DNA from: Lagopus muta
Lineage: Eukaryota
Assembly (NCBI RefSeq): GCF_023343835.1
Contig: NC_064458.1
Coordinates: 4,729,829-4,793,828 of the forward strand
Direction: 5' to 3'
Length of the DNA stretch: 64,000 nt
Below the pieces are notes generated by a model. It was not told the origin of the DNA. It saw nothing but the letters and a program-made list of their open reading frames with translations, and searched no databases. Below are positions 8,248-46,559 of this stretch, in pieces. A program made the position numbers and the translations under genes. How positions within the stretch are numbered: the stretch's first letter is position 1; every line of letters begins with the position of its first letter.

Positions 8248-8338
8248 GTAGAAGCCCTCCCCTCACCCTGCGGCCACGGCCCGCGCTCAGCAGCACCGAG
8301 CCCCGCTCACGCTCACGCTGCTTCTGCTTCTCCGGCAG

Positions 8339-8769: not shown

Positions 8770-8904
8770 GTGAATGGGTGAGTTACCTCAGCAGCCCTCT
8801 GGGCTTCTGCAGGGGATCTCCCCCTCAACACCGGATGGGGAACCAGGGCTGAGCACCGCAGATGTGCCGGCCGCTGCCTGGCTTGGCTCACTTTGTCCTC
8901 ACAG

Positions 8905-9046: not shown

Positions 9047-9217
9047 GTAAGATGCAAACAGCTGTGGCTCCCTAGGCGGGGGCCGGGCAACGCCTGGCAG
9101 TGGGTGCTGCTCAGGGCGGCCCTGCCAGGCTCTCTCTGCCCCAGGAAGGAGGGCAGCCCGTTGCGACTCAAGGCTGCAGCTTCATCCCAATGATCACCTT
9201 CCTGCTTTCCTTTACAG

Positions 9218-9837: not shown

Positions 9838-10020
9838 AGCCCTTCCGCAGCGGGATGTCAGGCTGCGACTTCCCACACAGACCCCAGCACGCCGCAGCAG
9901 CCAAACCCAACAGCAGCGGCCAGCCTGGGCACAAAGCTGCTCCCAGGTCCATCTGCAGAACCACATCCCCACAGCCAGACCTCAGTCTGCACAGGAGCAG
10001 CCGGGTGCCAATGACACCTG

Positions 10021-10136
10021 CTCAACTTGGTCAACATCAGCCAAGACGACAAATCCCACGCTCATTTACATCAGCTTGCTCAACTTGGTCAACATCAGCC
10101 AAGACAATAAATCCCACCCCCACCCCCATCAGCTTC
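10021..10136 (+). repeat. 58-bp tandem repeat, 2 units, in the 3' UTR of PHF7-like copy 1
   Basis: Two consecutive 58-bp units. The second is diverged in its last third and carries AATAAA at 10106-10111. Confidence 0.8.
10106..10111 (+). terminator. AATAAA polyA signal of PHF7-like copy 1 (inside the 58-bp repeat)
   Basis: This is the first canonical AATAAA downstream of the stop at 9837. Confidence 0.45.
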
Positions 10137-10199
10137 ATTCTTCTCGTCTTTTCCTGGGGTGGGCAGAGTTCAGACCTCGACCACAGGGTTGCCTTCTCC

Positions 10200-11217
10200 C
10201 CAGCAGAATGGCTCAGGTTGGAGGGGCCCTTAAATATCATCCGGCTCTAACCCCCTTGCCGTGAGCAGGTTCATGCACCACCAGATCAGGATGCCCAGGA
10301 TCCCATCCACCCTGGCCTCAAAGGACTCCAGCAACGGGGTGTCCTGAACCCCTCAGGGAGGAACCTCGCTGTTCCAGTGCCTCGCCACTCCCTGAGGAAA
10401 CAGTTTCTTTCTAACACCTCATCTCTCTCTATCCTCTTTTAGTTTCATGCCATTCCCCCTTGTCCTGTCACTATCAGAATGCATGAAAAAGTCAGTCCTC
10501 CTCCAGCTTGGCAGGACCCTTAAAAGTACGAGAAGGCTGTGGGCACAGAGGTCTCCTCAGAGCCTTCTGTTCTGAAAGCAAAGTGAACCCCACTCCCTCA
10601 ACCTGCCTTCTGAGGTGCGGTGCTCCAGGCCTTGTCTCCTCTTTGCGGCCCTCCTCCGGACCCCCCCTCCCACCGCTCCACACCCCTCCTGTGCTTGGCA
10701 CCCCAGGCTTGGGCGCAGTACTCCAGATGGATGCCCTCGCAAGGGCACAGCAGAGACGGACAATCACCGCCCTGCCCTGCTGGACACCTTCCTCAGGCCT
10801 TCCGGGCTGCAGGCACGTGCTGCTGGCTCATCTCCGGCTTTTTGGCCATTACGACCCCCAGGTCCTTCTCCACAGGGCTTCTCTCGCTGTCTTCTCCTCC
10901 CAGTCTCCACCCGTATCTGCGACTGCCTCAACCCAATCGCAACACCTTGCACTGGGCCTTGTTAAACCTCACGAGATGCTCACGTGCCCTGTATTCCAGC
11001 CTGGGTCCAGGTCCCTCTGGATAGCGTCTCTGCCTTCTGCTGTGCCAAGCGCACCATCAGCTCGGTGCCGTCAGCTGGGGGTGCACTCAATCCCACCGTC
11101 TGTGTCCTTGATAAAAATGCTCACGAGCATCAGTCCCCAGACGGACCCCTGGGTGCCCGGCCTCCACCTGGACACAGAGCCGCTGGCAGCAATCCTCAGG
11201 CACAACATCCCGATGCC
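10200..11217 (-). mobile_element. CR1 fragment (copy of 148-1165), cut at the amplicon junction
   Basis: Direct-repeat copy of the CR1 at 148-1580, truncated at 11217. Confidence 0.8.
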
Positions 11218-11533
11218 TGCCTTTGCTGCCCGCCTAGTCCAGGCTAGCGGCCCCGTTCTCCCAGTGTCAGAGTGCTCCCCTGCATGACAGCTGAAGTCTT
11301 TTCACATATCTGTCAGCTCACTCGTGCTCAGGAGTCAAATGGTTCTCGTCTCCTTTTTGAGTTCGGCCTCTTCCTCCTGCCGTTCTTGTCATGGCCTGGC
11401 TTCATTCTCATCCTCTTCTTCTACCTCCCTCTTAGAACGTATTTCCTTTCTTACTAAAGGAGCTGATTTTCACGGCCTCATTTTGCTCTTTTTAATAAGG
11501 GCTATGGATACTGGCACAGTTGGGTTCTCTGGT

Positions 11534-12694
11534 TGAACCACGTGGGCTGTCACGAAGTCGGGTGCTGGCGCAGGGCCTGTCTCATGGCTTGGAGCAGACG
11601 CAGGGCCCGTCGCAGTGGGCCAAACTGTTATGAGATCCCCCGCTCATGCGTTTCTTCTCCAGACTGAAGAGTCCTAGGTCTCTCAGCCTTTTCTCGTGAG
11701 GAAGATGCTCCAGGCCCCTCCATCATCTCTTGGTCGTCAAGCCAGTTCCCAGTCCATCTCACTGCCCACTCATCGGTGCGATGACTGGTGCGAAGCTGGC
11801 TGTCCTCCAGCATCCAGGCAGCTCTCCTGTTCTCCAAGGCCTCTCCAAGATCATAGAGAGCAGTTCAGCAATTACCTCCACCAGCTCTCTCAGCACACGT
11901 GGGTGCATCCCCACAGGGCCCATGAATTTGCGAGCACTGATTTTGCCTGCACGCTTCCTGTTCAGATCCTCCTCAAGCAGGAGGAAGTCTTTAATTCCCC
12001 AGACTCTCTCTCTTACCGCCAGGGCCTGGGATTTAGGAGGGGCAATCTTAGTAGTAAAGATGGAAGCAAAGAAGGCATTCAGTACCTCTGCCTTCTCTTT
12101 GTCCCTTGTTACCAAGGCATTCAGTGGCAGACCCGCATGTGTTCCAGTCTTAGTTTTACTACCAACATTCTCACAAAAGCCCTTGTTGTTCTCCTCGACC
12201 GCCTTTGCTGGATTTAATCCCAAGGGTGCCTTAGCCTTCCTCATTGCATCCTTGCAGGCCCTGACAACGCTCATACATTCTTTCCAAGTAGAAATGCCCT
12301 TCTTCCACGTGCTGTGTACGCTCCTCTTCCCTTTGAGTCCATCCATGAGCCCCTTGCTTATCCAGCAGTTCTCCTGCCACTTTTCCCTGCTTTCTTGCTC
12401 TCAGGGATGCATCCATCTTGAGCTTGGAGGAAGCGGTGTTTAAGTGTCAAGCAGCTCTCTCGGGCCTACTTGCCAAAGCTCCCGTCCATGGGATACCTCC
12501 AAGCAGGCCCACTGAGGAGGTCCTGCTCTCCCAAAGTCCGGGGTGACGGTCCTACTGTGGAGTCGGCAATGCATTTTATGCCATAGGATGGGCCCTTCCA
12601 ATTGGCTCAGGAGCAGTTTCCAGATGGCGTGGAGTGTGCCTGGTGCCATGTACCGTGTGCATGCCATACCAGTCATGCTTCTCCCATTGCGTGG
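11534..12694 (-). mobile_element. CR1 fragment (inverted copy of 5150-6250)
   Basis: Mirror of the CR1 at 5150-6250 (ORF 11759..12346- is identical to 5438..6025+). Confidence 0.75.
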
Positions 12695-21143: not shown

Positions 21144-21642
21144 TGCCCTCAGGCACACCTTTCCCCACGGTGCACCGCTTGCCTGGGTAACATACCAGAT
21201 CTTCTTTGAAGGGACTCCTTTCCCTCTCGGCCCTTACGGAGAGTCACCTCCACGAGGGGAAGGCTCGTGCCTCATTTCCAAGGGCTTTGCCAATGCACCC
21301 TGCCCGTGAAAGGGATCCCAGATGCCTGCCTTTGCTGCCCGCCTAGTCCAGGCTTGCGGCCCCGTTCTCCCAGTGTCAGAGTGCTCCCCTGCATGACAGC
21401 TGAAGTCTTTTCACATATCTGTCAGCTCACTCGTGCTCAGGAGTCAAATGGTTCTCATCTCCTTTATGAGTTCGGCCTCTTCCTCCTGCCGTTCTTGTCA
21501 TGGCCTGGCTTCATTCTCATCCTCTTCTTCTACCCCCCTCTTAGAACGTATTTCCTTTCTTATTAAAGGAGCTGATTTTCACGGCCTCATTTTGCTCTTT
21601 TTAATAAGGGCTATGGATACTGGCACAGTTGGGTTCTCTGGT

Positions 21643-22370
21643 TGAACCACGTGGGCTGTCACGAAGTCGGGTGCTGGCGCAGGGCCTGTCTCATGGCTTG
21701 GAGCAGACGCAGGGCCCGTCGCAGTGGGCCAAACTGTTATGAGATCCCCCGCTCATGCATTTCTTCTCCAGACTGAAGAGTCCTAGGTCTCTCAGCCTTT
21801 TCTCGTGAGGAAGATGCTCCAGGCCCCTCCATCATCTCTTGGTCGTCAGCCAGTTCCCAGTCCATCTCACTGCCCACTCATCGGTGCGATGACTGGTGCG
21901 AAGCTGGCTGTCCTCCAGCATCCAGGCAGCTCTCCTGTTCTCCAAGGCCTCTCCAAGATCATAGAGAGCAGTTCAGCAATTACCTCCACCAGCTCTCTCA
22001 GCACACGTGGGTGCATCCCCACAGGGCCCATGAATTTGCGAGCACTGATTTTGCCTGCACACTTCCTGTTCAGATCCTCCTCAAGCAGGAGGAAGTCTTT
22101 AATTCCCCAGACTCTCTCTCTTACCGCCAGGGCCTGGGATTTAGGAGGGGCAATCTTAGTAGTAAAGATGGAAGCAAAGAAGGCATTCAGTACCTCTGCC
22201 TTCTCTTTGTCCCTTGTTACCACGGCATTCAGTGGCAGACCCGCATGTGTTCCAGTCTTAGTTTTACTACCAACATTCTCACAAAAGCCCTTGTTGTTCT
22301 CCTCGACCGCCTTTGCTGGATTTAATCCCAAGGGTGCCTTAGCCTTCCTCATTGCATCCTTGCAGGCCCT
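21643..22370 (-). mobile_element. CR1 fragment (inverted copy of 5520-6250), truncated at the amplicon edge
   Basis: Mirror of the CR1 at 5150-6250. The copy stops at 22370. Confidence 0.75.
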
Positions 22371-22800
22371 GACAGAACAGTGGCAACCCCAAGCCATGAA
22401 ACACCCCCAGAATTGGGCTGCCCTGCCAGCAGAACCTTTATCCATCCTGATTTGAGACCTCGTGCCTCAGTGGGGCTGGGCCAGAGGCCAGCTGGGCCTG
22501 AAGGCCGCTGTGCCTCATCTGTGGGGCATGGGCTTCTCCAGCACATCGTCCTGTTACATCCATCCCATGCCCCTCTGTGTATCTGCTGACACCTGCCTGC
22601 TGTGGGGCTGCCCATGGTGGCTGTACAGCAGGTCAGCCAGTGCAGCTGCTGACAGCTCCACCGTGCTCTGCAGCTCACAGTGCTCGTACCCCTCCTTGGG
22701 CTGGATCTTCCTGAGGTCCCTCGTGGATTTTGAGAAGATACACATCCCCAGATGCCTGAGGGCGTGCCATAGGAGATTGGACACCATGTAGTCCATACTG
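22371..22800 (+). mobile_element. Diverged CR1 fragment abutting the amplicon edge
   Basis: 22371-22525 is ~93% similar to 16208-16362, i.e. it is a paralogous CR1 RT region and not part of U. Beyond 22525 it diverges, and 'MPQWGWARGQLGLKAAVPHLW..' (ORF 22462..22791+) still reads as CR1-like. The far boundary is uncertain. Confidence 0.5.
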
Positions 22801-23789: not shown

Positions 23790-24240
23790 TACATGCTCTG
23801 GCATGGAATCAGAGAATGAGAGAACCACCAGGGCATCATCAAACCATCAAAATGCAGAAGCATAGAGTCAAAGAATCAGAGAATCCAGAATCATGCAATC
23901 AGCTAATTATATGCTCTAGAATCATAATAATTGAATAAAAGAAGCTCAGAAACAGAGAATTCTCAGAATCAGAGAATTTAGAATCAGAATTATCATAGAA
24001 TCATTGAATAGCAGAAGCATAGAATCAGTGAATCAGAGAATCATTGTAGAATCATCAAGTCATGGAATCATAGAACAGCTGAGGTTGGAAGAGGCCTGAC
24101 AGATCATCCAGTCCCAGTTTTCTGCCCTGGCCAGGGACAACTTCCATCAGATCAGGCCATCCAGGGCCTCATCCAGCCTGGCCCTGAACGCTTCCACAGT
24201 TGGGGAGACCTGCGCTGAGGTTCACACATGCAACTCTATG
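23790..24240 (-). mobile_element. CR1 3' end with (catagaatc)n tail
   Basis: '..atcatagaacagctgaggttggaagaggcctgacagatcatccagtcccag..ggccatccagggcctcatccagcctggccctgaacgcttccacag' is the antisense of the CR1 ORF2 C-terminus plus tail. It is preceded by degenerate cagagaatc/catagaatc repeats. Confidence 0.8.
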
Positions 24241-26289: not shown

Positions 26290-26790
26290 CCTCAGCCCCA
26301 CAGCCTCTAGGGCCCCACTTGCTGTGACCTCACTGTTCCCAGGGCAAAGCCTTTGACACTGTCTCCCACAATATTCTCCTGGAGAAGTTGTCAGCCCACG
26401 GCTTGGGCTGGTACACTTTTTGCTGGGTGAAGAACTAGATGGATGGCCAGGCCCAGAGAGTAGTGGTGAATGGAGTTACACCCAGCTGGTGAATGGTCGT
26501 GAGTGGTGTTGCACAGGGGTTGGTAATGGGGCCTGTCCTGTTCGGTATCTTTTTAGATGACCTGGACGAGGGGATCGAACGCACTTACTTAAGTCTGCAG
26601 ATGACACCAAGCTGGTAGGAAGTGTCAATCTGTCTGGGGGTAGGATATTAGCAAAGATTTCTTCTACAAGTGCGGTCATGTGCTGAAACAGGCTGCCCAG
26701 GGAGGTGGCTGAGTCACTGTCCCTGGAGGCTTTCAAGAAACATACATATTTGGCACTAAGGGACATGGCCTCCAGCCCATGGAGACCTTA
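26290..26790 (+). mobile_element. CR1 fragment, sense, internally deleted
   Basis: '[72 protein letters not shown]' continues to '...AAQGGG.VTVPGGFQET' (CR1 ORF2 RT and C-terminus). Confidence 0.8.
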
Positions 26791-26879
26791 TTGCATTGGA
26801 GACCTCATAAGCCCAAGGAAATCCAACACCATGGAGATCCCCCTACCTTGAAGACACCAATCTATTGATAACCCAATCC

Positions 26880-27010
26880 ATTGAAACAACATAGCCTGTA
26901 GACACCTCCACCCCAGGCTTGGTGCTTCTGCTCCAAACTGGTGTCATTTGCAAAGAGAGAGGAGTAGGGCTTTGTTATAAAAAAGGGAGGAAAATCAACC
27001 AGAATTTGTC
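26880..27010 (-). mobile_element. CR1 fragment, inverted partner of 25670-25800
   Basis: The reverse complement matches 25690-25800 over ~100 bp. Confidence 0.5.
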
Positions 27011-27146
27011 TGGTTGGCGGTAGATGGATGGTTGGACTGGTTGATCTTGGAGGTCTTTTCCAACTTTGGTGATACTACTTCAGACACTTTGACATCTCCA
27101 CCCCAGCCTCACCATCATTATGACATCACTACTGCTATCACTCTGC

Positions 27147-27152
27147 TTTATT
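27147..27152 (-). terminator. MVP: AATAAA polyA signal of MVP
   Basis: 'tttatt' on the + strand, about 80 nt 3' of the stop. Confidence 0.5.
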
Positions 27153-27228
27153 TTGGAAAAAATAAAAAATAAAGGAAGCTTTGAGTGCTCAGCATCCTGG
27201 GATTTCTGCCTTCTGTTAGTGCTGAGCC

Positions 27229-27357
27229 CTACGAGGCTGAGGGCTCCGGAGGAACCGCCAGCCCCAGCAGCCCCCGGGCGGTGCTGAAGAGGTTCAGGGG
27301 GGCAGCTCCATCGGTGATGAGGGCAGACTGCAGTCCGAGGCCCTGCAGCAGCTTCAC
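27229..27357 (-). CDS. MVP: MVP exon 16 (last; [42 protein letters not shown])
   Basis: Near-identical to the human MVP C-terminus '[32 protein letters not shown]'. The acceptor is cag|GTG and the stop is TAG. Confidence 0.85.
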
Positions 27358-27467
27358 CTGGAAAGCACAGTGCAGGCACTGCCCCATCGTGGCACAGAGA
27401 CCTGGTGGCCCCACCAGCCTTGGGGGCCCTAACCTGGAGACCTCATACTCCATGAAGAGCCCACAAC

Positions 27468-27950
27468 ACTGGCCACCTCCAGCCCATGGAGACCTCGTCC
27501 CATTGGAGACCTCATAACCCAAGGAAATTCAGCGCCATGGTGATCCCCCTACCTTGAAGACACCGATCTACTGATAACCCAATCCATGGAAACAACATGT
27601 AGACACCTCCACCCCATGGAGACACTGCTCCACTAAAAGCCTGTACCCTATGAAGATCCCGTAACTCCATAGAGACTTCGTAACCCATGGAGGCTCAACT
27701 CAATGGACACCCCCTATGTTTTGCCACCCTCTACCCCACAGAGGCCCCCAAAACCACATGGAGCTCATGGAGACCCAATACAATGAAGATCCTGCCCCAC
27801 TGACACGATGTATCCAATGGAAACCCTGTAACCGAACAGAGTTCCCACCCTATGGAGCCCCAAGCCACGGGCACCCTATAGCCCATCAAGACTGCCGTGC
27901 TTTTGAAACCCCATGGCCACCCAAAGCTGACACTTAACCCCACCCCCAGC
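27468..27950. repeat. Degenerate 'ccatggagacc..' satellite-like array in the last MVP intron (related copy at 26775-26900)
   Basis: Repeated 'c(c)atggagac(c/a)..' blocks. 27468-27610 is a direct repeat of 26775-26900. Confidence 0.6.
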
Positions 27951-27959
27951 CCCACATAC

Positions 27960-28148
27960 CTGCAGCTCAGGCCCAGCACGGGCGATGTCCCGGATGGTCT
28001 CAGGCCCCAGGGCTGCTGCCACCTCCCGCACCTTTGAGGACTCCACGGCCGCCAGCGCCTGTGCCCGCGCCGCCTCCGCCTCTGCCCGCGCCCGCTGCGC
28101 CCGCACCTCCTGCGCCTGCATCCGCTCCAGCCGCGCCAGCTCTGCCTC
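27960..28148 (-). CDS. MVP: MVP exon 15 (EAELARLERMQAQEV...IRDIARAGPELQ)
   Basis: Aligns to human '[63 protein letters not shown]'. Flanked by cccag| and CAG|gtatgt. Confidence 0.85.
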
Positions 28149-28219
28149 CTGGGCACGGGGAGGAGGTAAGGCCTCACCCCACCTTATGAGACACCGCCAC
28201 AGCCCTGCTCGTAACGCAC

Positions 28220-28346
28220 CGTCTCTATGGCAACAGCCTCTGCCTTCAGCTTGGCCTGCAAGATGGCGGCCTCGGCCTCGATGCGTGCAGCCTCTGCCCT
28301 GGCCTGGGCCTCCGCCCGCGCTGCGCCTGCACTCTCCACCGCAGCG
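28220..28346 (-). CDS. MVP: MVP exon 14 ((S)[42 protein letters not shown])
   Basis: Aligns to human '[42 protein letters not shown]'. The donor is ACG|gtgcgt. Confidence 0.85.
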
Positions 28347-28609
28347 CTGCAAGGAGTGCTGTCACATGCCAAGCCTGCCGGGGCCACATCCCCTCCTCCC
28401 ACCCGGTAGCCTACAAGCAAGGAGACTGCCCTACTTCTGTAGGCCGATGGATCCCAGCACTCCCAGAGCCCCAGCACTCGCTCCAGCTGGGGCACATGGG
28501 GACACTGGAACAGGTGGAGCCTCGGGCAAATGGAGGTCCCCGGCAGCCTTCCCAAGTTGGCAGGTGAGCGTGATGCATGCTGGGAAGGGGGAGAACCAAG
28601 ATGGCTGAC

Positions 28610-28726
28610 CTGAGGGCCTCCAACTCCAGCAGCTCCCTGCGTGCCCGCTCTGCCTCCGCCTGGTCCAACAGCCGCTGGCGCTCCAGGCGGCCCCGGGCCT
28701 CCTGTGCCAGGCGCTCAGCTTCATGC
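28610..28726 (-). CDS. MVP: MVP exon 13 ([38 protein letters not shown])
   Basis: Aligns to human '[38 protein letters not shown]'. Confidence 0.85.
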
Positions 28727-28734
28727 CTGTGGGA

Positions 28735-29440
28735 TGAAGGGACACTGTGGGCATGTGGGACACTGGGGGGACACTGGGGGCCAACTGGGGACACTGGGAG
28801 GATGCAGACAGGACAGTGGGAGGACAGTTGGAGACACGTTGAGGTCACTGGAGCACAGGACACTGGGGATGCTGTGGGAACTCTGGGGTTCTGAGGATAC
28901 TGAGGACACACAGGTGACATTGGGGATGGGACATTTGGGACACATTAGAGACACTGGGAACACACTGGGGACACTGGGAATGCTTTGGGGATACTGGGAC
29001 ACAGAACGATGCAGGTGATGCTGAAGATATGTGGGACATTAGGATGGAGGGTATGTGGAATGAAGTTTGGGGGCACGGAGGATATGGAAGACATTTGGAA
29101 ACATGGGAGATAAAGAGGATATTTGGGGACATAGGACTGAGGACATTTGGTGGCATGGAACGCATAGAAGATGCTTGGGGATGTGGGACAAGGACATCTG
29201 TGGACAAGAGGGATAGAGAGGATATTTGGGGACACTTGGGAATATAGAGAACACTTGAGCGAATGGGAGATGTAGAGGAAATTTGGGGATGTATGGGATA
29301 TAGAGGACATTTGGGGACACAGGGGACATAGAGGACACCTGGGGATAAAGAGGTCATATGGGGACAGGAAGTGGAAAAGGAGAGGTGGGAATATGGCAAC
29401 ACATGGCATACAGAGAGGCAAAAGAAGACATATGGCAACA
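28735..29440. repeat. Minisatellite (~18-20 bp 'atagaggacatttggggaca') in MVP intron 12 (second block 29750-29890 in intron 11)
   Basis: Long run of 'ggacac(t)tgggga / atagaggatatttggggac' units. Confidence 0.7.
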
Positions 29441-29485
29441 AGAACACAAGGGGGGCAAACCAAGGTGACACAGGGAACTGGGGAC

Positions 29486-29697
29486 CTGGCGGCAGCCTCC
29501 TGGGAGTTGGTGGCGATCTCGATGGCCAGCTGGACGCTGCGCTGCAGTGCGTCGCGTGTGCGTTGGTCCACAGGTTCCACACTCTGGATGTCGACGCTCG
29601 TCACCACCAGCCCATTGGGGACAAAGCGCAGGTGCTCCCGCAGCCGTCCACCCTCGTCAAAGCCAAAGACAGCTGAGCAGATGAGGCGATTGGAATT
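29486..29697 (-). CDS. MVP: MVP exon 12 ([70 protein letters not shown])
   Basis: Aligns to human '[80 protein letters not shown]'. Confidence 0.85.
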
Positions 29698-30207
29698 CTG
29701 GGGACAGCAGGGACAGCAGTGTCACTGCGGGACGAGGACAAGGGCAGGGGACCAGGGGGGCATCAGGGCCATTTAGGGGTGTGAGGGACATAGAGGGTAT
29801 TTGGTGACAGGAGAGATCTGGGAAATGGGATATAGAAGATACTTGGGGATATGGAGATATAAGGGCATCTGTGGACATCTGGGGACAATATCATAGTGTA
29901 GGCTGTTGGGGCAGTGAGCACAATGGGGACATGGGGTGACACTGAGGAACCTGCAAGGATTTATCAAAGCCAAGCAGGGATGTTGAGAATTCTGTTGATG
30001 TCCCCAGAGGCTCTTGGAGACAGCAGAGACTCAGGGACATGGGGAACCCCATTCTGGTGACATCTGAGCGAGCCAAGATAACATAAACAAAATGTGGGGA
30101 CGTAGGGGGAGGTGACACAGGAGGACGCAAGGCAATGACTTAGGGTGGCGTGGCTGGGGGAAGCATGGGTGATAAGTGGGGGAACCAAGGGGTGGCAAGA
30201 GGTGGAC

Positions 30208-30346
30208 CTTGTGGAAGTCATCAAAGGTGACAGCAGCGACAGCTCCACGCACACGGGAGGCCAGGGCCTTGCAGGCATCCCCCACAAAGTCAGGAACACT
30301 GAAGAGACGCCCCAGAGCCTTTGGATCCTCAGGCACCTCAAAGTGC
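30208..30346 (-). CDS. MVP: MVP exon 11 ((W)[46 protein letters not shown])
   Basis: Aligns to human '[48 protein letters not shown]'. Confidence 0.85.
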
Positions 30347-30479
30347 CTGTGGGGAAATGTCCTCATGTCACCACCCCATACCACAATCCTGGTCCTAACC
30401 CTGATTCTCAAAGCTACCTCTGTCCCCAGGCCACCAACCCATGGGCTTTGGCTGTCCTACAGTGAAATTCCACCCAAGA

Positions 30480-30880
30480 CCACCCATACTGCACCCAAGA
30501 ACAAATCAAACTTAAGACCACTCTAACTCCACCTCAAACCCAAGACCATCCCACGCCCCACCCCAAGACCAACCCAAACCTCAACCAAGACCACCCTAAA
30601 TCCAAGACCACCCCAAACCCCACCCAAGATCATTCACAAACTCCACCCAATCCTAACCCATAGCTCACCTGAGACCACCCCAAACTCAAGGCCAACCCAA
30701 ACGCCACCCAAAACCAACCCAAATCCCACACCAAGACCACCTCAAGACCCAGGACCAAACCAAACCCCACCCAAGACCACCTCACCCTTACCCAAAGACT
30801 ACCCCATACACAAGATCACTCCATACTCAAGACCACCCAATCCTAAGACCACCCCAACTCCCACCTAAGACCCCTCAGCC
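30480..30880. repeat. Minisatellite (~15-bp 'ccaagaccaccccaaa') in MVP intron 10
   Basis: Tandem '..aagaccacc(c)caaa(c)cc..' units. Confidence 0.7.
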
Positions 30881-30891
30881 CCCAGCCCCAC

Positions 30892-31089
30892 CAGTTGTAG
30901 GCCAGCTGCAGCTGCAGCCGTGCATGGTCAGCTGTCTCAATGGTGACAATGTCAGCACAGAAGTCAGGGCCGAGGCGCAGGCAGAGGCTGCGGCGTGCAT
31001 GGGGCCTTTTGGGGCGGCCTCCAGATAGGGACAGCACCGTCAGCTGCTCACCAGGGCCCAGCACCACCAGCTCGGGGCCCAGTACCACT
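30892..31089 (-). CDS. MVP: MVP exon 10 ((R)[65 protein letters not shown](W))
   Basis: Aligns to human '[67 protein letters not shown]'. Confidence 0.85.
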
Positions 31090-31119
31090 CTGCAATGGGG
31101 TGGAGAAAGAGCATCGTAA

Positions 31120-31760
31120 GGTAAAATGAGGCCCAGGGGTCCTTCAAGCCGAGGACCCTGCAAACCCCAGAATCCTACAAACCCTAGAATCCTATGAAAC
31201 TTACAATCTTACAAAGCCTAGAAACCATAGAGTCCCACGATACCTATAATAACCTGAGTAAGCATCGTGAGTAAGTACCCATAAGCATCACTGTGCTCCT
31301 TACTCTCACCCCAAAACCCTACAGTCACATTGGAGATTCTGCAGCACAGGAAGGTCATCAGGAGGTAGTAGAGGGCTGGACAATCCTTGGCAGCCCCAGA
31401 ATTCAACAAATCTACAGCACTCTACAGTCATATAACTCTAGAACCCCAGAACCCTAGAATCCTAGAACTCTGGAGTCCTATAAACACAGAACCCTAGGAT
31501 GCTTAGAATACAAGAATTTTATAAACACCCTAGAACTCTATAAACATGGAATGCTAGAATCCTGGAATCATGGAATTTAGAATCTTAAAAAACTAGAATG
31601 CTAGAATCCCTGAATTGTTGAAACTGAGAGTCCTAAAAACCTACAGTCCTTGAATCCTAGAGTCCTGCAGTCCCAGAAACCCAGCAACCTAGGAAATGCA
31701 GAACCCTAGAATCCCAGAAACATAAAAACCTAGAACCCTACAAACCCAGAATATCCTGAG
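31120..31760. repeat. Minisatellite (~9-10 bp 'cctagaatc') in MVP intron 9
   Basis: Tandem 'ccctagaatcc / cctagaactc' units. Confidence 0.7.
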
Positions 31761-31885
31761 TTTGAATGGATCCAATAGGTTGGCTTTTAGGAAAAAACAA
31801 AGCCAGGGATCCCAGCAAAATTCTCCAAACTCAGTGCCTGCCCCACATCCCATTGTCCCCATGCCTCTCAACTGAAGGCACTTAC

Positions 31886-32136
31886 CGTGCTCGCCGCTCC
31901 CGGTAGTCATAGACCTGCACAGCAGCATTATGGGGCACCTGATATGTGACAGCACGGGTCCGGTCCCGTTCCTGGACCCCAAAACTGGGGCCTGAGGATG
32001 ACTGGATGCCCAAATCTTGACCAGCTGTGTCCCCACGAGCCTCAGCCAACAGGGTCTCAACCCCTTGGGGCAGCTCCTTCTCCCACAGCTCCTCGGCCTC
32101 CGTCAGCATGTAGGTCTGCCCCGTCACCACCCGCAC
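31886..32136 (-). CDS. MVP: MVP exon 9 ([30 protein letters not shown]...[17 protein letters not shown](R))
   Basis: Aligns to human '[30 protein letters not shown]...[18 protein letters not shown]'. Confidence 0.85.
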
Positions 32137-32159
32137 CTGTATGGAAACCAGTGTGGGGC

Positions 32160-32745
32160 TAGGGTGTCACCAGGAATACTAGGAGGACTGGAAGAGGTGT
32201 CTGAAAGGATTCATGGGGTACGTGGAACTCTTGGATGGGGCTTAGGGGCACTGGAAGAGGATTTCAGGCCTACTGGGAGTACTGGGAGAGCATGTGGAGG
32301 CACAGAAAGGGCTACTGAGAGCAGCTATATGGGATACTGGGAGCTCTAGGATGAGCTGTGGGAAGTGTCTGGGGGCACTGGGATGGGATTTGGGGAGTGC
32401 AAAGAACACTTGGAAGGGACTTGGGGAAACTGAGAGGGAATTATGTGTGCTGGGGGACACTGGGAGAGACTGGAAAGGTGTGTGGGGGCACTAGGGAGGG
32501 GGACTTTGGGGGCACTGGGAAGGGATTGTTGAGGGACTGAGAGAGGAAAGGGGTTACTAGGAGCCCTTGGAGGGGTATCCAAAGGGATGTGGGGGGCTCT
32601 TGGAGATCCTAGATGGGCTCTGTAGGTACTGGAAGCAGCTATATGGGATACTGGAAGCACTGGGATGAGCTGAGGAAGGTTTCTAGAGACACTGGAAAGC
32701 AGTGTGAGGGACACTGAGGTAGGTTTAGGGGCACTGAGCACCCAT
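32160..32745. repeat. Minisatellite (~20-bp 'gggcactgggaagggatt') in MVP intron 8
   Basis: Repeated 'gg(g)cactgg(g/a)a(g/a)(g)gga(t)tt..' units. Confidence 0.65.
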
Positions 32746-32771
32746 GGGATCTGTAGGAACAGGACTCTCAC

Positions 32772-32930
32772 CTTGCCGGTGCGGATGTCCCGCACATAGA
32801 TGCCCTCGTTCTCAGCCAGGGCCAGTGCACGGCGTCGCTCCAGCACAGTCACCTCAGCTGGTGGCACGTACTCGAGAGGACCCCGGGCCAACCAGCGGTC
32901 CCCTGCACGCCGTATCACCTCCGTCCCATC
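32772..32930 (-). CDS. MVP: MVP exon 8 ([53 protein letters not shown])
   Basis: Aligns to human '[50 protein letters not shown]'. Confidence 0.85.
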
Positions 32931-33282
32931 CTGAGGATGCAGCGGTGGCATCAGCACCAACCTGGGGACATGGGATGTGGGGACCCTACCCAATCGCTGG
33001 CTGGGGATGTGGGACCTCCAGAATCTCCCAGGTGTCCCCCTGTCCCCAGGTATCATCATGTATCCCAGGTGCCCCCTATGCACCTCACCTGTTCCCATGT
33101 ACCCCAGGCGTCCCCCATGAACCTCACCTGTCCCCACCTGCCTCCAATGCACCTTACCAATTCCAGTGTTCCCACGAGTCTCCTTTGCTCCCCCCCCCCA
33201 GTTCCCCCAGTTGTTCCCTCTGTCCCCCATTCGCCCACCACCCCCAGTCTCCACCACGTGATGCTATGAGCTTCAGTGTCAC

Positions 33283-33408
33283 CTCGTCAGTGTCCTTGAT
33301 TGTCTGCAGAGCCTGAAGAAGTAGCCCCTCATCCTCAGAGAGCACATAGACATCCTCGATGCCAGCCTGGAGCCTCTCACCCGGCTGCAGGAAGAAGGAT
33401 TTCTCCCC
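33283..33408 (-). CDS. MVP: MVP exon 7 ([42 protein letters not shown])
   Basis: Aligns to human '[44 protein letters not shown]'. Confidence 0.85.
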
Positions 33409-33629
33409 CTGGGGACACAGGAACATCACCTCAGGGATTTCATGTGCTCTCAGGAGTAAATTAGGGTCCCTGGTGGCCACTGGCCACCCCTGAGATATCG
33501 TGGGGATACCTATGGGTACATCAGAGCCACCTGCAGGTCCCTGAGGTCCATTTACATGGTCCTCTGGGGTACCCAACTTGTCCTCAAGGACCTGCAGGTG
33601 ACATCTCTGTGGTCCCATGAGGTGTGCAC

Positions 33630-33866
33630 CTTGATCACACGCTTCTGTCCCAGCTGGGGCTGCCCGTTGGGTCCCACAGGGTCGAGCACCACGCAGTACT
33701 GTCGAGGACCCAAAGTTGTCACCAGCACCTCAGCCACCACCTCCTCGAAGACATCAGGGACGTAGGCCTCACTCTGCTCCTGTGTCACCAGCCACTCCTC
33801 TCCTGTGCGGCGCACATGTCCCTGCGCATCCTCAAAGGTCCGGGTAGCTCGCAGGTGGAGGGCTTT
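33630..33866 (-). CDS. MVP: MVP exon 6 ([79 protein letters not shown])
   Basis: Aligns to human '[80 protein letters not shown]'. Confidence 0.85.
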
Positions 33867-34065
33867 CTGTGGGACAATGAGATCAAAGCGCATGATGGGA
33901 CCCCAATTCTGTCCCAGAGGGTCTTTATCACCTGCATGTGCTAGGAGACAGAGTGATGGGACACCTAAACTTGTCCCAGATTTGGGTTCAGGGAAAAAAA
34001 ATCCTGGAGTGTCCCTGTCACCCATGGGTGTAGGGGAGACCACAGGGGATCCCATGTCCCTGTAC

Positions 34066-34160
34066 CTTGTCAGTGAGGACATAGGCATCCACGACATCGA
34101 CCACCTCCTCGTAGACCCCTGGCAGGTAGGCACCCACCCGCTTCACCAGCCACTCCTCAC
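34066..34160 (-). CDS. MVP: MVP exon 5 ((G)[31 protein letters not shown])
   Basis: Aligns to human '[32 protein letters not shown]'. Confidence 0.85.
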
Positions 34161-34189
34161 CTGGAAACAGTATTATGGGGTGATCAAGG

Positions 34190-34550
34190 AGTTAAGGGGG
34201 CTGGTGCAGACTGGGGGAGACAGGGAGGGTTGGGGAGATTTGGGTTGGGAAGGGGTCTGAAGGGTGCTGGGGGTCCTGTGGGACAAACCTAGGGGTGTCT
34301 GGAGTCCTAAGGGTGGGACTGGATGATCTCAGACGTCATTAGGGTGGGATGAGACAACTCCAAAGGTGGGAAGGGACAAAACTAAGGGTCGTTAGGGTGG
34401 GATGGGATGACCTCAACGGTGTCTGGGATCACGAGGGTGGGATGGGACTATCCCAAGGGTCATTTGGGTGAGAAGGGACAATCCCACTGGTCATCAGAGT
34501 GAGACGGGATGATCCCAAGGGCCATTGGGGGGGGAAAAGACAATCCCAAG
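34190..34550. repeat. Minisatellite (~35-bp 'gggtgggatgggatgatcccaagggtcat..') in MVP intron 4
   Basis: About 9 imperfect tandem units. Confidence 0.7.
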
Positions 34551-34558
34551 GGTATTAC

Positions 34559-34690
34559 CTGTGACACGCCGCGTGCCCTGACGGTCGAGGCACTCCTTGC
34601 GTGCCCTCAGGCGGATGGCCTGGTTGTGCCTGATGACGGTGGCCTGCAACGTCTCAACCACCTCTACCTCCTTGTGGGGGATGTAGGTGC
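34559..34690 (-). CDS. MVP: MVP exon 4 ((G)[43 protein letters not shown])
   Basis: Aligns to human '[43 protein letters not shown]'. Confidence 0.85.
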
Positions 34691-34761
34691 CTGTGGAGCC
34701 GGGGCACCATCAGCAACCCAAGATGTCCCCAAGGTGTCCTTAAAGTGTGCCCCTTGCTCAC

Positions 34762-34885
34762 CAGGACCCTCGAAGAGCCACTCATCGCCTGCCACAAACT
34801 TGTTCCCATCCTCATCCTCAAAGTCAAGCAAGGCTCGAAGGCGCAGGGCAGTATCAGCCAGCACCACCTGCAGCGGGGTGACACC
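34762..34885 (-). CDS. MVP: MVP exon 3 ([41 protein letters not shown](G))
   Basis: Aligns to human '[41 protein letters not shown]'. Confidence 0.85.
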
Positions 34886-34899
34886 CTGTGGACACAAGG

Positions 34900-35780
34900 G
34901 TCAGGGCTGAGGGTGACATCCTGGGGACACAGAGGTCAGGGCTGAGGGTGACAACCTAGGGATGTCTGGAAGACAATGGGGGACAGAAGTGACGGTGGCA
35001 TGGCAGGGGGCATAGCGGAAAAGGTTTCTCTGGGACATGACCTCAGGACATGGGGGTCATGACAAGTCTATCAGAGGGATGCAAGGGTCCTGGTAGGGCA
35101 GTGGCAGGTACTCAGGCACAAAGCAGGGACAAGGGGAACACATGGAGGGCTACGGGAAGCTGTGGGAGTTCTACAGGAACGATTATAGTCAATGAGACAG
35201 CTATAGACAGTTTACAGGACGTATAGCAAACTGAACAGAGGGGTCAGAGGAGCTATAGGGGATTACAGGAGGAGCTATAGAGGCTATGGAAGGACACAGA
35301 AAAGAGTTGCAGAGGGGGACCTGGGAGACTATAGAATCTATAGGAGACCATGGAGGGGAAGGTAGAGGACTTATAGGGGGACTATAAGAACCACAGAAGC
35401 TATAAGGTGTTGTGGAGCTTCTGAAGAGCTGAAGGAGAATGTGGGCTGGGAAGATTACCAGAAACTAACTATAGGATCTCTGGGATGGCTGCTGGTGAGC
35501 TACAGATGCTCCAGGAATCATGAAAACCTAGAAGAGCTATGCAAGCTAAGGGGGATCACATCAAACTGCAAACTACAGATGCTATATAAGACTAAGCTAG
35601 TGTATACTGTCACACACTGAAAAAGCTACAGGAGGCTGTGGATAACCCCACAGGGGGCTACAGGGAGCTGTAGGCACCCTGAAACCCATAGGTAGAGGTG
35701 CTGGAAGTCTTTGCAGGGTGGCAGGGAAAGGATAGCTGAGGTTATAGGGGGCTATAGGAGCAATGTAGGGTGGCTATGCG
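34900..35780. repeat. Minisatellite (~20-bp 'ggagctatagggggctata') in MVP intron 2
   Basis: Many 'gagctatag(g/a)gg' units. Confidence 0.65.
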
Positions 35781-35783
35781 TAC

Positions 35784-35979
35784 CTGCTGGAGCTCCTCAC
35801 CGGGGTACAGGGGAAAGGGCTCCTGGGTGAGGCGGACATCAAGGTCAGCATGCCGCAGCTGGGCCTGCCCCGCACCATCGAACAGCACAGCTCCCGTTGG
35901 ACCCCGGGCCACAGGATTGAGCACCACGCAGTAGTGCCGGGGGGGAACTATCACCATGCGCTTGGGGGAAAAGACCACC
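35784..35979 (-). CDS. MVP: MVP exon 2 ((R)[65 protein letters not shown])
   Basis: Aligns to human '[67 protein letters not shown]'. Confidence 0.85.
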
Positions 35980-36249
35980 CTGCAGGTGCCCCCGCACATC
36001 TGCCATCAGCTCTGTAGGACTGTTGGAGCTCCACAGCACCCCTCACATACTCCACAACCCTTGTTTCACCCCACAGACCTCCCATGGAACTCTAAGGACT
36101 TATGGAACACAACCAGATAGAAGAGGCCTCCATGATCATACAGAATTCCTATAACTGTACAGAGCCCCCCACTGACCTACAGAGCCCATCACGGCCCTAG
36201 ATGTGGGACTGGGTCTCTCCAGCCCACTGCTTGAACCCCAGGCAGGTAC

Positions 36250-36368
36250 CTCTCATGGTCCTGCCGGATGTAGGAGTGAGGTCCAACCTCCACACGAGTG
36301 ACGTTGCTGTTGAGGTCCAGCACGTGGATGTAGTGGTAGGGGGGTATGCGGATCACAGGGTCCTCCAT
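36250..36368 (-). CDS. MVP: MVP exon 1 coding part ([39 protein letters not shown])
   Basis: The ATG (rc) at 36366-36368 sits in a 'tccccATGg' context. Aligns to human '[41 protein letters not shown]'. The donor is GAG AG|gtacct. Confidence 0.85.
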
Positions 36369-45129: not shown

Positions 45130-46100
45130 GATACACCATGGAATTCCTCTGAATTTCCTCACTGTGTTTTTGAGCTCCTGGTTCCTCATGCTGTAGATGA
45201 GGGGGTTCACTGCTGGAGGCACCACTGAGTACAGAACTGCAACCAACAGGTCAAGAGATGGGGATGAAATGGAGGGGGGTTTGAGATAGGCGAACATGAG
45301 AGTGCTGACAAAGAGCAAGACAGCCAGGTGAAAGGCATGTGGAGAAGGCTCTGTGCCATCCCTGCTCTGAGGGCATCCTCAGCAGGCCCTGAAGATCTGC
45401 AGATAGGACAGCACAATGAAAACAAAGCACACGAAGATTAAACAAAGGCTAAAATCAATAATCCCAGCTTCCCTGAGATTGTCTGACTCTGAGCAGGAGG
45501 GCTTGAGGATCTGGGCGATTTCACAGAACTGGCATTGCTTTTACAGAATGGTATTGAGAATGTATTGGCTGTGTGCAACAGAGCATAAAGAAACCCACTG
45601 CCCCAGGCAGCTGCAGCCATGGTGGCAACAAGCTCTGCTGCCCAGCAGGATGTTGTAGTGCAGGGGCTTGCAGATGGAAACGTAGTGGTCGTAGGCCATG
45701 ACAGTGAGAAGGAAGTATTCTGCATCAAAAAAGAATAGTAAAAAAAAGACTTGTGCAGCACATTCAGCAAAGGAGATGTCCCTGGAGTCCCAAAGGACAT
45801 TGGCCATTGCTTTGGGGAGAGTGGTGGAGATGCAGCCCAGGTTCAGGAGGGCGAGGTTGAGGAGGAAGAAGTGCATGGGGTGTGCACGTGGTGGTCGCAG
45901 GCTACGGCTGTGCTGATGAGGCCGTTGCCAGGAGGGCGGCCAGGCAGATGTCCAGCAAGAGCCAGAAATGCAGGAGCTGCAGCTGCTGCGTGTCTGCAAG
46001 CACCAGGAGGAGAAACTCATTGATGGAGCTGCTGTTGGACAACTGCTGCTGCTGGGCTTGGAGACCTGTACAAGGAGGATAAGACAAAGAGGTGTTAGGA
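45130..46100 (-). pseudogene. Olfactory receptor pseudogene (class-II OR-like, multiple frameshifts)
   Basis: OR signatures are split over three or more frames on the - strand. These are the N-terminus '..NSSSINEFLLLVLADTQQLQLLHFWLLL', 'PMHFFLLNLALL..MAYDHYVSICKPLHYNILL', 'HRAFSTC' and the C-terminus '..VVPPAVNPLIYSMRNQELKNTVRKF'. Confidence 0.7.
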
Positions 46101-46559
46101 TTGGATTTAGGAGAGTTAATCCCCAACCAGACCTGTTGGCACATGTGAAGCCTTCCGCCTGCAAAAGGCTTCATACAGGTGTTCGTTTTCGTTAGGGACT
46201 CAACGGTCTGTCCATCTACCTCGGTGCACACCAATGTGGTGGGTGGTAAAATGGCGTTTATTGCAGGGAGCGCGTCCTTTTTAAAACTTTTCCCCATGCC
46301 TTAGGGCTACTACCTGACCAATGGACATGTGGAATGTCTTGTTTCTTCCTTATTTGGTCTATCCTGTTCTTCTCCCTTATCTTCAGGTCATTTGTTGCCA
46401 TGGTTTCCCAGGGGCCGAGGGGCCCCTGTCGACCCTGTTCGACTACACACATGGAGCTGCCCAAGTATCTGAAGGGGAATTTTGAATCCCTGCACTGAAT
46501 TAGTCAGATTCTATCCAGCTGCCCTGCGGGGATATTCCCTGCTTGTCAAAATGAGAAAT

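Follow-up and report, generated by a model that had tools for sequence, protein, structure and literature searches.

The MVP gene and its product

The window, a 64,000-nucleotide stretch of Lagopus muta DNA, contains a complete gene for major vault protein (MVP) on its minus strand. Exons were located by tblastn with a human MVP query and then delimited by searching for splice sites. This yielded a coding span of 36368..27229 from ATG to TAG, with 16 coding exons, 849 codons and GT..AG boundaries in 15 of 15 introns. The original prediction of a complete 16-exon gene with canonical introns was thus borne out, its end coordinates and codon count being reproduced exactly. The coding features, including an alternative start, are as follows:

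27229..36368, minus strand: MVP coding span, ATG to TAG, 849 codons
37281..37337, minus strand: upstream alternative first coding exon of annotated isoform X1; MTKPTRRVAAVTAG..; joins an exon-1 extension near 36419
36250..36368, minus strand: coding exon 1 (ATG at 36368)
35784..35979, minus strand: coding exon 2
34762..34885, minus strand: coding exon 3
34559..34690, minus strand: coding exon 4
34066..34160, minus strand: coding exon 5
33630..33866, minus strand: coding exon 6
33283..33408, minus strand: coding exon 7
32772..32930, minus strand: coding exon 8
31886..32136, minus strand: coding exon 9
30892..31089, minus strand: coding exon 10
30208..30346, minus strand: coding exon 11
29486..29697, minus strand: coding exon 12
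28610..28726, minus strand: coding exon 13
28220..28346, minus strand: coding exon 14
27960..28148, minus strand: coding exon 15
27229..27357, minus strand: coding exon 16 (TAG at 27231-27229)

The predicted exon chain has indirect support from NCBI gene predictions with the same product. Against "major vault protein isoform X1 [Lagopus leucura]", the reported identity and coverage of our protein are both 100%; by eye, we counted two substitutions. The locus DNA is ~98.8% identical to that of L. leucura, and 16 coding exons were likewise found in six other bird MVP loci. The protein has Pfam matches to Vault (8e-66), Vault_2, Vault_3, Vault_4 and MVP_shoulder (3e-49), all exceeding curated cut-offs, in the order Vault repeats, then shoulder. 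Near-collinearity with human MVP also held: the alignment pairs residues 2-845 with residues 4-856 of the human chain from solved vault structures (1273 bits). Judged from these matches, the locus is an intact, already annotated grouse major vault protein gene.

Tandem arrays in the MVP introns

Arrays were called with TRF over the 6590 intron bases, with a score of at least 50 as the array cut-off and at least 30 as a looser one. The unit sizes agree with those originally listed, and arrays occur in eight of the 15 introns:

36158..36199, minus strand: intron 1 array, 20 bp x 2.1 (TRF); sense GGTCCGTGGTGGGCTCTGTA
34876..34962, minus strand: intron 2 array, 35 bp x 2.5; extends over the 3' splice site into exon 3 (first ~10 nt)
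34434..34557, minus strand: intron 4 array, 31 bp x 4.0 (TRF)
33027..33257, minus strand: intron 7 arrays, 20 bp x 5.7 and 39 bp x 2.1, plus 9/17-bp units; sense GGGGACACCTGGG..
32271..32473, minus strand: intron 8 degenerate repeats, 32 bp x 2.0 and shorter
31157..31752, minus strand: intron 9 arrays, 8/16-bp period x 39 at 31419-31752 and 17 bp x 2.2 at 31157-31194; sense TTCTAGGGTTTGTAGGA
30535..30856, minus strand: intron 10 arrays, 11-41-bp units (17/23/41 at a TRF score of at least 50); sense TGGTCTTGGGGTGGGGTTTGGG
28727..29366, minus strand: intron 12 arrays, 11/20/28/52-bp units; sense TGTCCCCAAATGTCCTCTATATCCC; family common to intron 11

No clear array was found by TRF in introns 3, 5, 6, 11, 13, 14 and 15, so the prediction of minisatellites in each intron was an overstatement. 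Units are 8-52 bp long, as a rule in 2-10 copies (39 for the 8-bp period) with 59-88% matches. The 15/21-bp periodicity at 28048-28140 is coding, belonging to an Ala/Arg/Glu-rich stretch of exon 15, and is not an intronic array.

The predicted large share of intron sequence was confirmed, far above the shuffle level. Arrays cover 21.7% of intron bases (TRF score at least 50) or 26.5% (at least 30), compared with 2.1% and 4.4% in the rest of the window. At the stricter cut-off, 1429 nt lie in arrays, versus 11 +/- 23 nt (~0.2%) in 30 dinucleotide-preserving shuffles. The union of TRF calls (score at least 30) and self-BLAST amounts to 39% of intron sequence and reaches 47-77% in each of introns 4, 7, 8, 9, 10 and 12. 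G4 motifs occur at 0.98 per kb in MVP versus 0.16 per kb in the remaining window; the gene has a moderate GC content (0.52-0.59 per 2-kb bin), not an extreme one. The part of the window at 38-60 kb is AT-richer (GC 39-52%) and nearly array-free, and the first 22 kb contain inverted duplications that are 99.7-99.9% identical.

Some units appear to include splice-site sequence. While BLAST of exons against introns in the window gave no match above the shuffle maximum of 30.2 bits, direct reading suggests that the intron 2 unit repeats the acceptor plus ~10 nt of exon 3: every unit contains a copy of ..TGTGTCC(C/A)CAG plus G(G/A/T)TGTCACCC. There are three additional acceptor-like copies in intron 11 and additional donor-like and acceptor-like copies in intron 12, where the reading frame stays open for 180 codons past exon 12. 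In Tympanuchus, a predicted isoform reads through intron 12; comparison by eye with the ptarmigan intron 12 translation suggested an 8-codon difference. The acceptor-like copies in introns 2, 11 and 12, together with this predicted isoform, suggest that the arrays may affect splicing.

Distribution of the array families

BLAST of each intron against the others gave self matches only, apart from introns 11 and 12, which match each other. The families are therefore mostly private to their introns, as predicted, with three departures: the family shared by introns 11 and 12, a 7-mer present in several introns, and a motif shared with an intergenic array. The 7-mer, the acceptor-like core TGTCCCC, has 17 sense-strand copies in seven introns and no same-strand copy in ~54 kb outside. 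The intergenic array, with an 8-bp AGAATC/TAGAATC period, lies ~3 kb beyond MVP at 23856-24075 and has TAGAATC in common with the intron 9 array; the motif reaches 15-23 per kb in these two arrays versus 0.1 per kb elsewhere.

The original prediction was also open to refutation by families shared genome-wide. With the exception of loose TAGAATC, family motifs have 0-1 copies in the 53.6 kb of the window outside MVP plus ~52 kb of flanks at seven other loci. Over the ~106 kb to which this check extended, the motifs are thus essentially absent, TAGAATC apart. No Rfam family matched anywhere in the window.

Comparison with other birds

The repeats are present in other bird MVP orthologues, with each family at the matching intron in species after species. 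The intron 1 core GCTCT[GA]TAGG is confined to intron 1, with 16 copies in Alectura, 16 in cuckoo and 39 in emu, and the intron 8 sense motif TCCCAGT[GA]C was found in intron 8 only, in seven of seven bird species scored. Homologous arrays occur in Bambusicola, Callipepla and Alectura. Copy number of a given motif varies between species from 0-2 up to 39-64, and array load (TRF score at least 50) ranges from 2% in merganser, which has an intact 16-exon MVP, through 11-23% in quail, bamboo partridge and ptarmigan and 35% in cuckoo to 76% in megapode and 89% in emu; these values are to be read with the N-gaps of the Alectura assembly in mind, and with three comparison assemblies that we take to be short-read, in which arrays may be collapsed or gapped. 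Exon-edge copies are extensive in emu, where intron 2 holds 16 copies of the terminal 78 nt of exon 2 and intron 11 holds three of the initial 45 nt of exon 12. The TRF consensus of the cuckoo intron 10 array apparently includes the end of exon 10, by our reading.

Relative to L. leucura, an independent assembly, 13 of 15 intron lengths are identical, which argues that the arrays are not currently unstable. Substitutions amount to 0.81% within arrays and 0.75% outside. Only two indels occur in 6.6 kb of intron, both within arrays; one is a single 17-bp block of intron 10 (17 bp is a TRF period there), lost between the two species. These comparisons mark the arrays in ptarmigan as relics, short and degenerate. 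We rejected assignment to classical hypervariable minisatellites on the low copy numbers and matches given above and the intron lengths shared with the sister species.

Chromosomal setting

The intronic minisatellite-like pattern termed "sequence stuttering" has been described as a hallmark of avian dot-chromosome genes, whose median simple-repeat intron coverage is 7-93% (Hron et al. 2026, Genome Biol Evol 18:evag038; PMC12954441). One of its three defining features is intraspecific intron length polymorphism (PMC12954441). Intronic minisatellites are also reported for the euchromatic A compartment of zebra finch dot chromosomes (bioRxiv 10.1101/2025.10.17.683159). The MVP pattern fits stuttering and would be expected on such a chromosome. 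Thus, the repeat density is unusual, as originally held, when set against ordinary chromosomes, but is the norm for dot-chromosome genes.

The chromosome records that carry MVP orthologues are 3.3 Mb in emu, 1.7 Mb in merganser and 16.6 Mb in cuckoo. The downstream neighbour of emu MVP encodes a TRAM_LAG1_CLN8 domain and would be compatible with TLCD3B. In human, the 16p11.2 neighbours of MVP include PPP4C, ALDOA and KAT8. The chicken supplement of Hron et al. places these three genes on dot chromosome 38; the genes that the study names do not include MVP (PMC12954441). We infer that the ptarmigan MVP locus may also lie on a dot chromosome; the AT-richer, nearly array-free part of the window at 38-60 kb and the 16.6-Mb cuckoo record speak against this. 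The microchromosome-like, recombination-active setting of the original prediction agrees with this literature and with the small emu and merganser records.

Origin of the intron arrays

The most probable account is that this is a functional, ordinary MVP orthologue whose introns carry short imperfect arrays from local duplication, as in the stuttering of genes in euchromatic dot-chromosome DNA. Short imperfect tandem arrays would arise when intron sequence, in some cases with splice-site sequence, is duplicated locally. A local seed may be copied head to tail by replication slippage or template switching, with unequal exchange or gene conversion, and GC-rich, G-quadruplex-prone, highly recombining DNA could provide the substrate. 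We propose that selection would purge only changes that harm exons or true splice sites, so that each block is confined between two exons, and the arrays themselves would be tolerated by-products and not functional elements. The ptarmigan arrays, with almost no length change relative to the sister species, would be quiescent and decaying; the intron-specific seeds found in ptarmigan appear to have grown to tens of copies with higher-order units in emu, megapode and cuckoo, and in merganser, the arrays would have been nearly lost. A local origin is supported by the exon- and splice-edge copies and by the lack of the motifs in the ~106 kb outside MVP. The near-equal substitution rates within and outside arrays suggest that these behave neutrally. 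Weighing against the account are the moderate GC content of the gene, the length stability relative to L. leucura and the strand-specific, position-locked motifs.

Alternatively, the motifs may be selected intronic splicing elements, with copy number tuning the splicing of short GC-rich introns; candidates would be C-rich TGTCCCC-type elements for poly(C)-binding proteins and G-run/UAGG-type elements for hnRNPs. Consistent with this are the strand specificity of TGTCCCC, the position-locking of motifs across deep avian splits, the fact that arrays never disrupt exons or true splice sites, and the suggestion, in the preprint 10.1101/2025.10.17.683159, that intronic non-B DNA may act in splicing. 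However, merganser MVP is intact with hardly any array content, copy number swings widely across species, the substitution rate in arrays equals that outside, and the units are degenerate. In addition, the acceptor consensus of MVP's own introns is itself TGTCCCCAG, which explains the shared strand-specific core without function. Selected splicing elements are therefore unlikely, yet strand-specific motifs locked in position across such splits are unlike purely neutral, fast turnover, and this leaves room for a functional seed within the locally duplicated arrays.

That genome-wide satellite or transposon-derived families landed in the MVP introns is a very improbable origin. The intergenic array with the intron 9 TAGAATC motif is what such dispersal could produce, but the diagnostic motifs of the other families are missing from the window outside MVP and from the flanks at seven other loci, some units include the adjoining exon edge, and Rfam gave no match in the window. 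Each family also keeps its intron in species after species, which is not a product of dispersal. We accordingly rejected classification as a dispersed repeat over the ~106 kb outside MVP, setting aside loose TAGAATC. Mis-collapsed or mis-expanded low-complexity sequence is scarcely credible as the source: dot-chromosome sequence is notoriously difficult to sequence and assemble (PMC12954441; 10.1101/2025.10.17.683159), and the inverted duplications of the window's first 22 kb could be such an artefact, but the same arrays, and the lengths of 13 of 15 introns, recur in the independent L. leucura assembly, homologous arrays are found in the three other galliform genera named above, and the spliced product is an intact MVP.

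Comparison with known systems

Ptarmigan MVP has the domain order of human and rat MVP (structures e.g. 4V60, 4HL8), with Vault repeats, shoulder and C-terminal helical part. In the homologue search, it showed 68% identity to mammalian MVP sequences; it is ~40 residues shorter than human and rat MVP, at the C-terminus and in two loops.

Classical Jeffreys-type hypervariable minisatellites are GC-rich tandem arrays of 10-50 bp units in recombination-active DNA. The MVP arrays share their unit size, GC-richness, tandem order and link to recombination-active DNA; they differ in being short and degenerate and in occupying successive introns of one gene, each with its own unit. The zebra finch dot-chromosome minisatellites likewise occupy much of the intron sequence, with enrichment of G4 and direct-repeat motifs; that work, in the text available, is a genome-wide songbird survey without gene-by-gene or cross-species unit orthology (10.1101/2025.10.17.683159).

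The closest parallel is stuttering in chicken dot-chromosome genes (such as PHF8 on chr29 and PPP4C, ALDOA and KAT8 on chr38), where each intron likewise contains one or several imperfect motifs, tens of bp long, that have expanded locally into blocks isolated between exons and leave the coding sequence intact. MVP, too, has imperfect tandem blocks confined to single introns (eight of 15, with BLAST matches to self only except between introns 11 and 12). Exon-edge and splice-site copies, known from the chicken genes, are strong in the emu orthologue and may be weakly present at ptarmigan intron 2/exon 3. In contrast to the chicken cases, the ptarmigan arrays are small (22-39% of intron), old and near length-stable between two Lagopus species. 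Whereas Hron et al. (PMC12954441) found differing clusters in the orthologous introns of related species, MVP adds to published stuttering a set of intron-specific motifs that stay at the same introns across Galliformes, with three families extending to cuckoo and emu.

MVP gene model and product

We located MVP by six-frame translation and tblastn, using a human MVP as a guide, which served as a lead for locating exons only; identity conclusions rest on database searches. A splice-junction search, in which GT..AG pairs were scored by alignment to the guide, then yielded 16 coding exons on the minus strand, from an ATG at 36368 to a TAG at 27231-27229. The model has 849 codons and 15 GT..AG introns totaling 6590 nt, and its ends and codon count agree with the original prediction. 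A plus-strand gene was rejected: MVP lies on the minus strand, and repeat composition accounts for the open frames that cross the region on the other strand.

The product has a reported full-length identity of 100% with NCBI "major vault protein isoform X1 [Lagopus leucura]", with two substitutions seen in a by-eye comparison with the L. leucura protein record P0001, and the window DNA is 98.8% identical to L. leucura contig JAHKMA010000059.1, which marks it as the DNA of a close relative. The protein shares 92% identity with a merganser MVP and 68% with mammalian MVPs, contains Vault, Vault_2/3/4, and MVP_shoulder domains, and aligns through residues 2-845 with residues 4-856 of the solved human MVP. 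Annotated isoform X1 is 36 residues longer, via an upstream exon (37337-37281) that joins near 36419. This is an annotated, intact MVP orthologue, most likely ordinary and functional, and the picture of the gene itself is unchanged.

Tandem arrays in the introns

The original prediction that MVP introns carry tandem repeats was confirmed. Arrays with a TRF score ≥50 cover 21.7% of the introns (1429/6590 nt), compared with 2.1% of the window outside the MVP span and 11 ± 23 nt in dinucleotide shuffles; at a score ≥30, the values are 26.5%, 4.4%, and 158 ± 56 nt. About 25 of the 47 TRF rows of the whole 64 kb sit within the 9-kb gene. The heading of the original prediction put a family in each intron, and its text in at least seven; the eight introns listed below have arrays at ≥50, and 7 of the 15 lack a clear array.

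Arrays in MVP introns of the window (TRF score ≥50)
Intron 1: period 20 bp
Intron 2: period 35 bp
Intron 4: period 31 bp
Intron 7: periods 20/39 bp
Intron 8: period 32 bp
Intron 9: periods 8/16 bp
Intron 10: periods 17/23/41 bp
Intron 12: periods 11/20/28/52 bp

The arrays are short and degenerate (59-88% matches). Coverage rises to 39% once self-BLAST matches are added, reaching 47-77% in introns 4, 7, 8, 9, 10, and 12. At 28048-28140 the periodicity belongs to coding sequence, in an Ala/Arg/Glu-rich stretch of exon 15. MVP has six times the G4 motif density of the rest of the window, and eight of the nine G-quadruplex-type motifs in the gene (28731-35827) lie on the plus strand, the gene's template strand. 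The whole window was scanned against Rfam (gathering thresholds) with no RNA family matched, and the conserved intron motifs are thus not explained by a snoRNA or miRNA.

The pyrimidine-rich array of intron 12 (28948-29485, minus strand) leaves the frame open for 180 codons past exon 12, a length reached by only 18 of 2000 mononucleotide shuffles; the intron 8 frame is likewise open, for 141 codons. A predicted NCBI "isoform X2" of MVP from Tympanuchus pallidicinctus (P0018) is exactly this intron 12 read-through, differing by eye from the window translation by eight codons within the array. This isoform may reflect an error of annotation or an intron genuinely retained.

Privacy of the repeat families

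The families had been described as private to each intron, and at the alignment level this largely holds. Intron-by-intron BLAST (E ≤ 1e-3) gave matches within the same intron only, except between introns 11 and 12, and the diagnostic family motifs were missing from the window sequence beyond MVP (53.6 kb) and from a total of ~52 kb flanking seven other loci. Three kinds of sharing qualify the claim. One family, TGTCCCCAA-ATGTCC, is common to introns 11 and 12. The 7-mer TGTCCCC has 17 sense-strand copies over seven introns and no same-strand copy beyond the gene. MVP introns have this same sequence as their acceptor consensus, e.g., TGTGTCCCCAG|G in intron 6 and CTGTCCCCAG|A in intron 11, and thus the shared core may come from seeding by similar splice sites rather than from common descent. 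Finally, the TAGAATC motif of intron 9 (8-bp period) also occurs in an intergenic array at 23856-24075. That array, also of 8-bp period, consists of 27 copies of (C/A)TAGAATC, ends in ..GCTGAGGTTGGAA, and has a motif of a type that may be common in bird genomes.

Copies of splice sites and exon edges

By direct reading, the last 2.5 units of intron 2 are ..gttgtcaccctcagccctgacctctgtgtccccag / gatgtcaccctcagccctgacccttgtgtccacag / GGTGTCACCCC.., so every such unit duplicates the acceptor together with ~10 nt from the start of exon 3. A decoy acceptor 35 nt upstream of exon 3 would, if used, lengthen the message by 35 nt and break the frame. Intron 11 holds a further three copies of its own acceptor 12-mer (≤2 mismatches), and intron 12 has additional donor-like and acceptor-like copies. 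When exons were screened against introns for stuttering, following the approach of Hron et al. (blastn-short, with a shuffled-intron control), no match passed the threshold in L. leucura, Bambusicola, Alectura, or the window. The short intron 2/exon 3 junction repeat is visible by direct reading only, the window copies being too short for this screen. A search for 11-nt exon-edge copies (≤1 mismatch) in adjacent window introns found none.

Longer copies occur in other birds. In emu, the final 78 nt of exon 2 recur 16 times in intron 2, with a 155-bp period and 94% matches, and emu intron 11 contains three copies of the first 45 nt of exon 12; the exon-stuttering regions span about 6124-10690 and 26510-29057 of the emu locus (L006). 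In the cuckoo, the 83-bp unit of intron 10 contains what we read as the end of exon 10. These orthologues appear to record the same copying process as the window on a larger scale. Mergus intron 9 (4.4 kb) is nearly repeat-free apart from a 41-nt copy of the exon 10 start at intron positions 1523-1563 (90% identity).

Comparison across species

We compared orthologous loci from L. leucura, Bambusicola, Callipepla, Alectura, Mergus, Dromaius, Phaenicophaeus, and one turtle. With window exons as blastn queries, all 16 coding exons were recovered in the first six, except in Alectura, whose gapped record gave no match for exons 5 and 14; the cuckoo and turtle genes were mapped by tblastn chains (16 blocks each).

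Intron coverage by arrays (TRF score ≥50) and, for the seven birds counted, copies of GCTCT[GA]TAGG and of TCCCAGT[GA]C
Window: 21-22%; 1; 4
L. leucura: 23%
Bambusicola: 22%; 2; 4
Callipepla: 11%; 1; 2
Alectura: 76%; 16; 12
Mergus: 2%; 0; 4
Emu: 89% of 29 kb; 39; 33
Cuckoo: 35%; 16; 4
Turtle: 24%

Across Galliformes, introns 1, 2, 4, 7, 8, 9, 10, 12, and 15 keep the same unit consensus at the same intron, and window vs. Alectura comparisons gave 16, 54, and 23 HSPs in introns 1, 9, and 10, respectively. Motif counts extend this pattern: GCTCT[GA]TAGG, where present in the seven birds counted, occurs in intron 1 only, TCCCAGT[GA]C is nearly confined to intron 8 in seven of seven bird species, and ATGTCC[CT]C is found mostly in introns 2, 11, and 12. 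All three are absent from turtle MVP, whose arrays use other units; turtle introns 4, 7, and 14 (Malaclemys, L007) hold GC-rich arrays whose units, 61-233 bp long, show no relation to the bird motifs. This locking of motifs by intron suggests that the seeds are old or recurrently re-used, with copy number and higher-order structure differing by lineage.

Between the window and L. leucura there are only two intron indels, both within arrays, one of them removing a 17-bp block from intron 10, 17 bp being among the TRF periods of that intron. Arrays and the sequence outside them have equal substitution rates (0.81% vs. 0.75%). By this pattern, the ptarmigan arrays look like quiet relics.

Sequence flanking MVP

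Features of the window outside MVP
1-6578 and 17783-11207: inverted duplication, 99.9%
5518-10114 and 22374-17779: inverted duplication, 99.7%
1-1158 and 10052-11210: direct duplication, 99.7%
11207-12266 and 21315-22374: direct duplication, 99.1%
45541-46164, minus strand: ORF fragment with olfactory-receptor/7tm_1 domains (Pfam 7tm_4, 5e-15)
60424-62037, minus strand: 537-aa ORF in a GC-rich stretch; its integrase-core (rve) match is weak and falls short of the Pfam cut-off

The near-perfect large duplications at 1-22374, downstream of MVP, may be genuine, forming a palindromic segmental duplication, or may have arisen in assembly; the matching L. leucura stretch includes a gene called at 497 aa, whose domains are PHD/zf-HC5HC2H (G2E3-type). 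A Pfam search of ten long ORFs outside MVP returned only the olfactory-receptor fragment and the weak integrase-like match, and none of the expected 16p11.2 neighbors (CDIPT, PAGR1, and others). The former may be a pseudogene or a single exon, since its profile is covered only in part, and the latter may be an endogenous-retrovirus remnant. GC content is 50-66% over the first 38 kb and 39-52% at 38001-60000, upstream of MVP, where there are A/T runs and tandem arrays are nearly absent; this places a sharp compositional boundary within the window.

Origin of the arrays

A functional role of the arrays in splicing is disfavored, because the merganser gene lacks them and they evolve at the same rate as the remaining intron. 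Most likely, this is a functional MVP whose introns carry the decayed products of local, splice-site-proximal duplication. Array anatomy and the literature point to slippage or template switching, together with unequal exchange, in GC-rich, G4-prone, recombining DNA as the probable mechanism; the decayed arrays would be tolerated as neutral by-products.

We give even odds to a further proposal, that stuttering in MVP is not free-running and species-specific but starts from an ancient, position-locked seed in each intron, the arrays having been expanded, decayed, or purged independently by lineage. The seeds would be GCTCT[GA]TAGG in intron 1, TCCCAGT[GA]C in intron 8, and ATGTCC[CT]C in introns 2, 11, and 12, retained ever since the ancestor shared by palaeognaths, Galloanserae, and Neoaves; they would have expanded in emu, megapode, and cuckoo, decayed in ptarmigan and quail, and been purged in merganser. 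Several look like the introns' own splice-site sequences.

If ancient seeds are real, MVP becomes a tractable clock for array birth and death. If the pattern holds genome-wide, the mechanism is constrained, with seeded local duplication, often splice-site-proximal, favored over random de novo repeats, and bursts of instability become datable. The locus is also a clean, small example of the intronic stuttering that hampers sequencing and annotation of avian dot-chromosome genes; the arrays make acceptor and donor look-alikes and long open frames, by which gene prediction can be misled.

Chromosomal setting and comparison with known stuttering

PPP4C, ALDOA, and KAT8 are 16p11.2 neighbors of human MVP. 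All three are placed on chicken chr38 (supplement, PMC12954441); MVP is not named in the text or the searched supplements of that study, and the text of Huang et al. 2023 does not name it either, so its chicken chromosome, expected to be chr38, is one that we infer. The MVP orthologues lie on chromosome records of 3.3 Mb in emu and 1.7 Mb in merganser.

In chicken dot-chromosome genes, each intron holds one imperfect motif or several, tens to hundreds of bases in size and expanded locally; the blocks are isolated within introns, and now and then an exon edge is copied along with its splice site (Hron et al. 2026, Genome Biol Evol, PMC12954441). Simple repeats cover a median of 7-93% of intron sequence on dot chromosomes and ~0 on others, and intron lengths differ between individual chickens (PMC12954441). 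On zebra finch dot chromosomes, minisatellite-like, G4-rich repeats make up most intronic euchromatic sequence (10.1101/2025.10.17.683159). The original prediction, partly supported overall, had the right idea in a microchromosome-type setting, but the pattern it called unusual is the norm there.

Stuttering has been reported as not found outside birds, gerbils excepted (Hron et al., PMC12954441). The 24% array coverage of turtle MVP, a single gene with unrelated units, hints that the process may predate birds. For dot-chromosome genes, the published view is of unrelated, recent, independently arisen clusters in orthologous introns, whereas the MVP seeds recur by intron; ancient seeds, if real, would qualify that view. 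Our cross-species comparison suggests motifs that are old and intron-specific, with lineage-specific copy number. On the basis of one gene at nine loci, what appears new relative to published work is that intron-specific seeds are deeply conserved and locked in position while expansion is lineage-specific.
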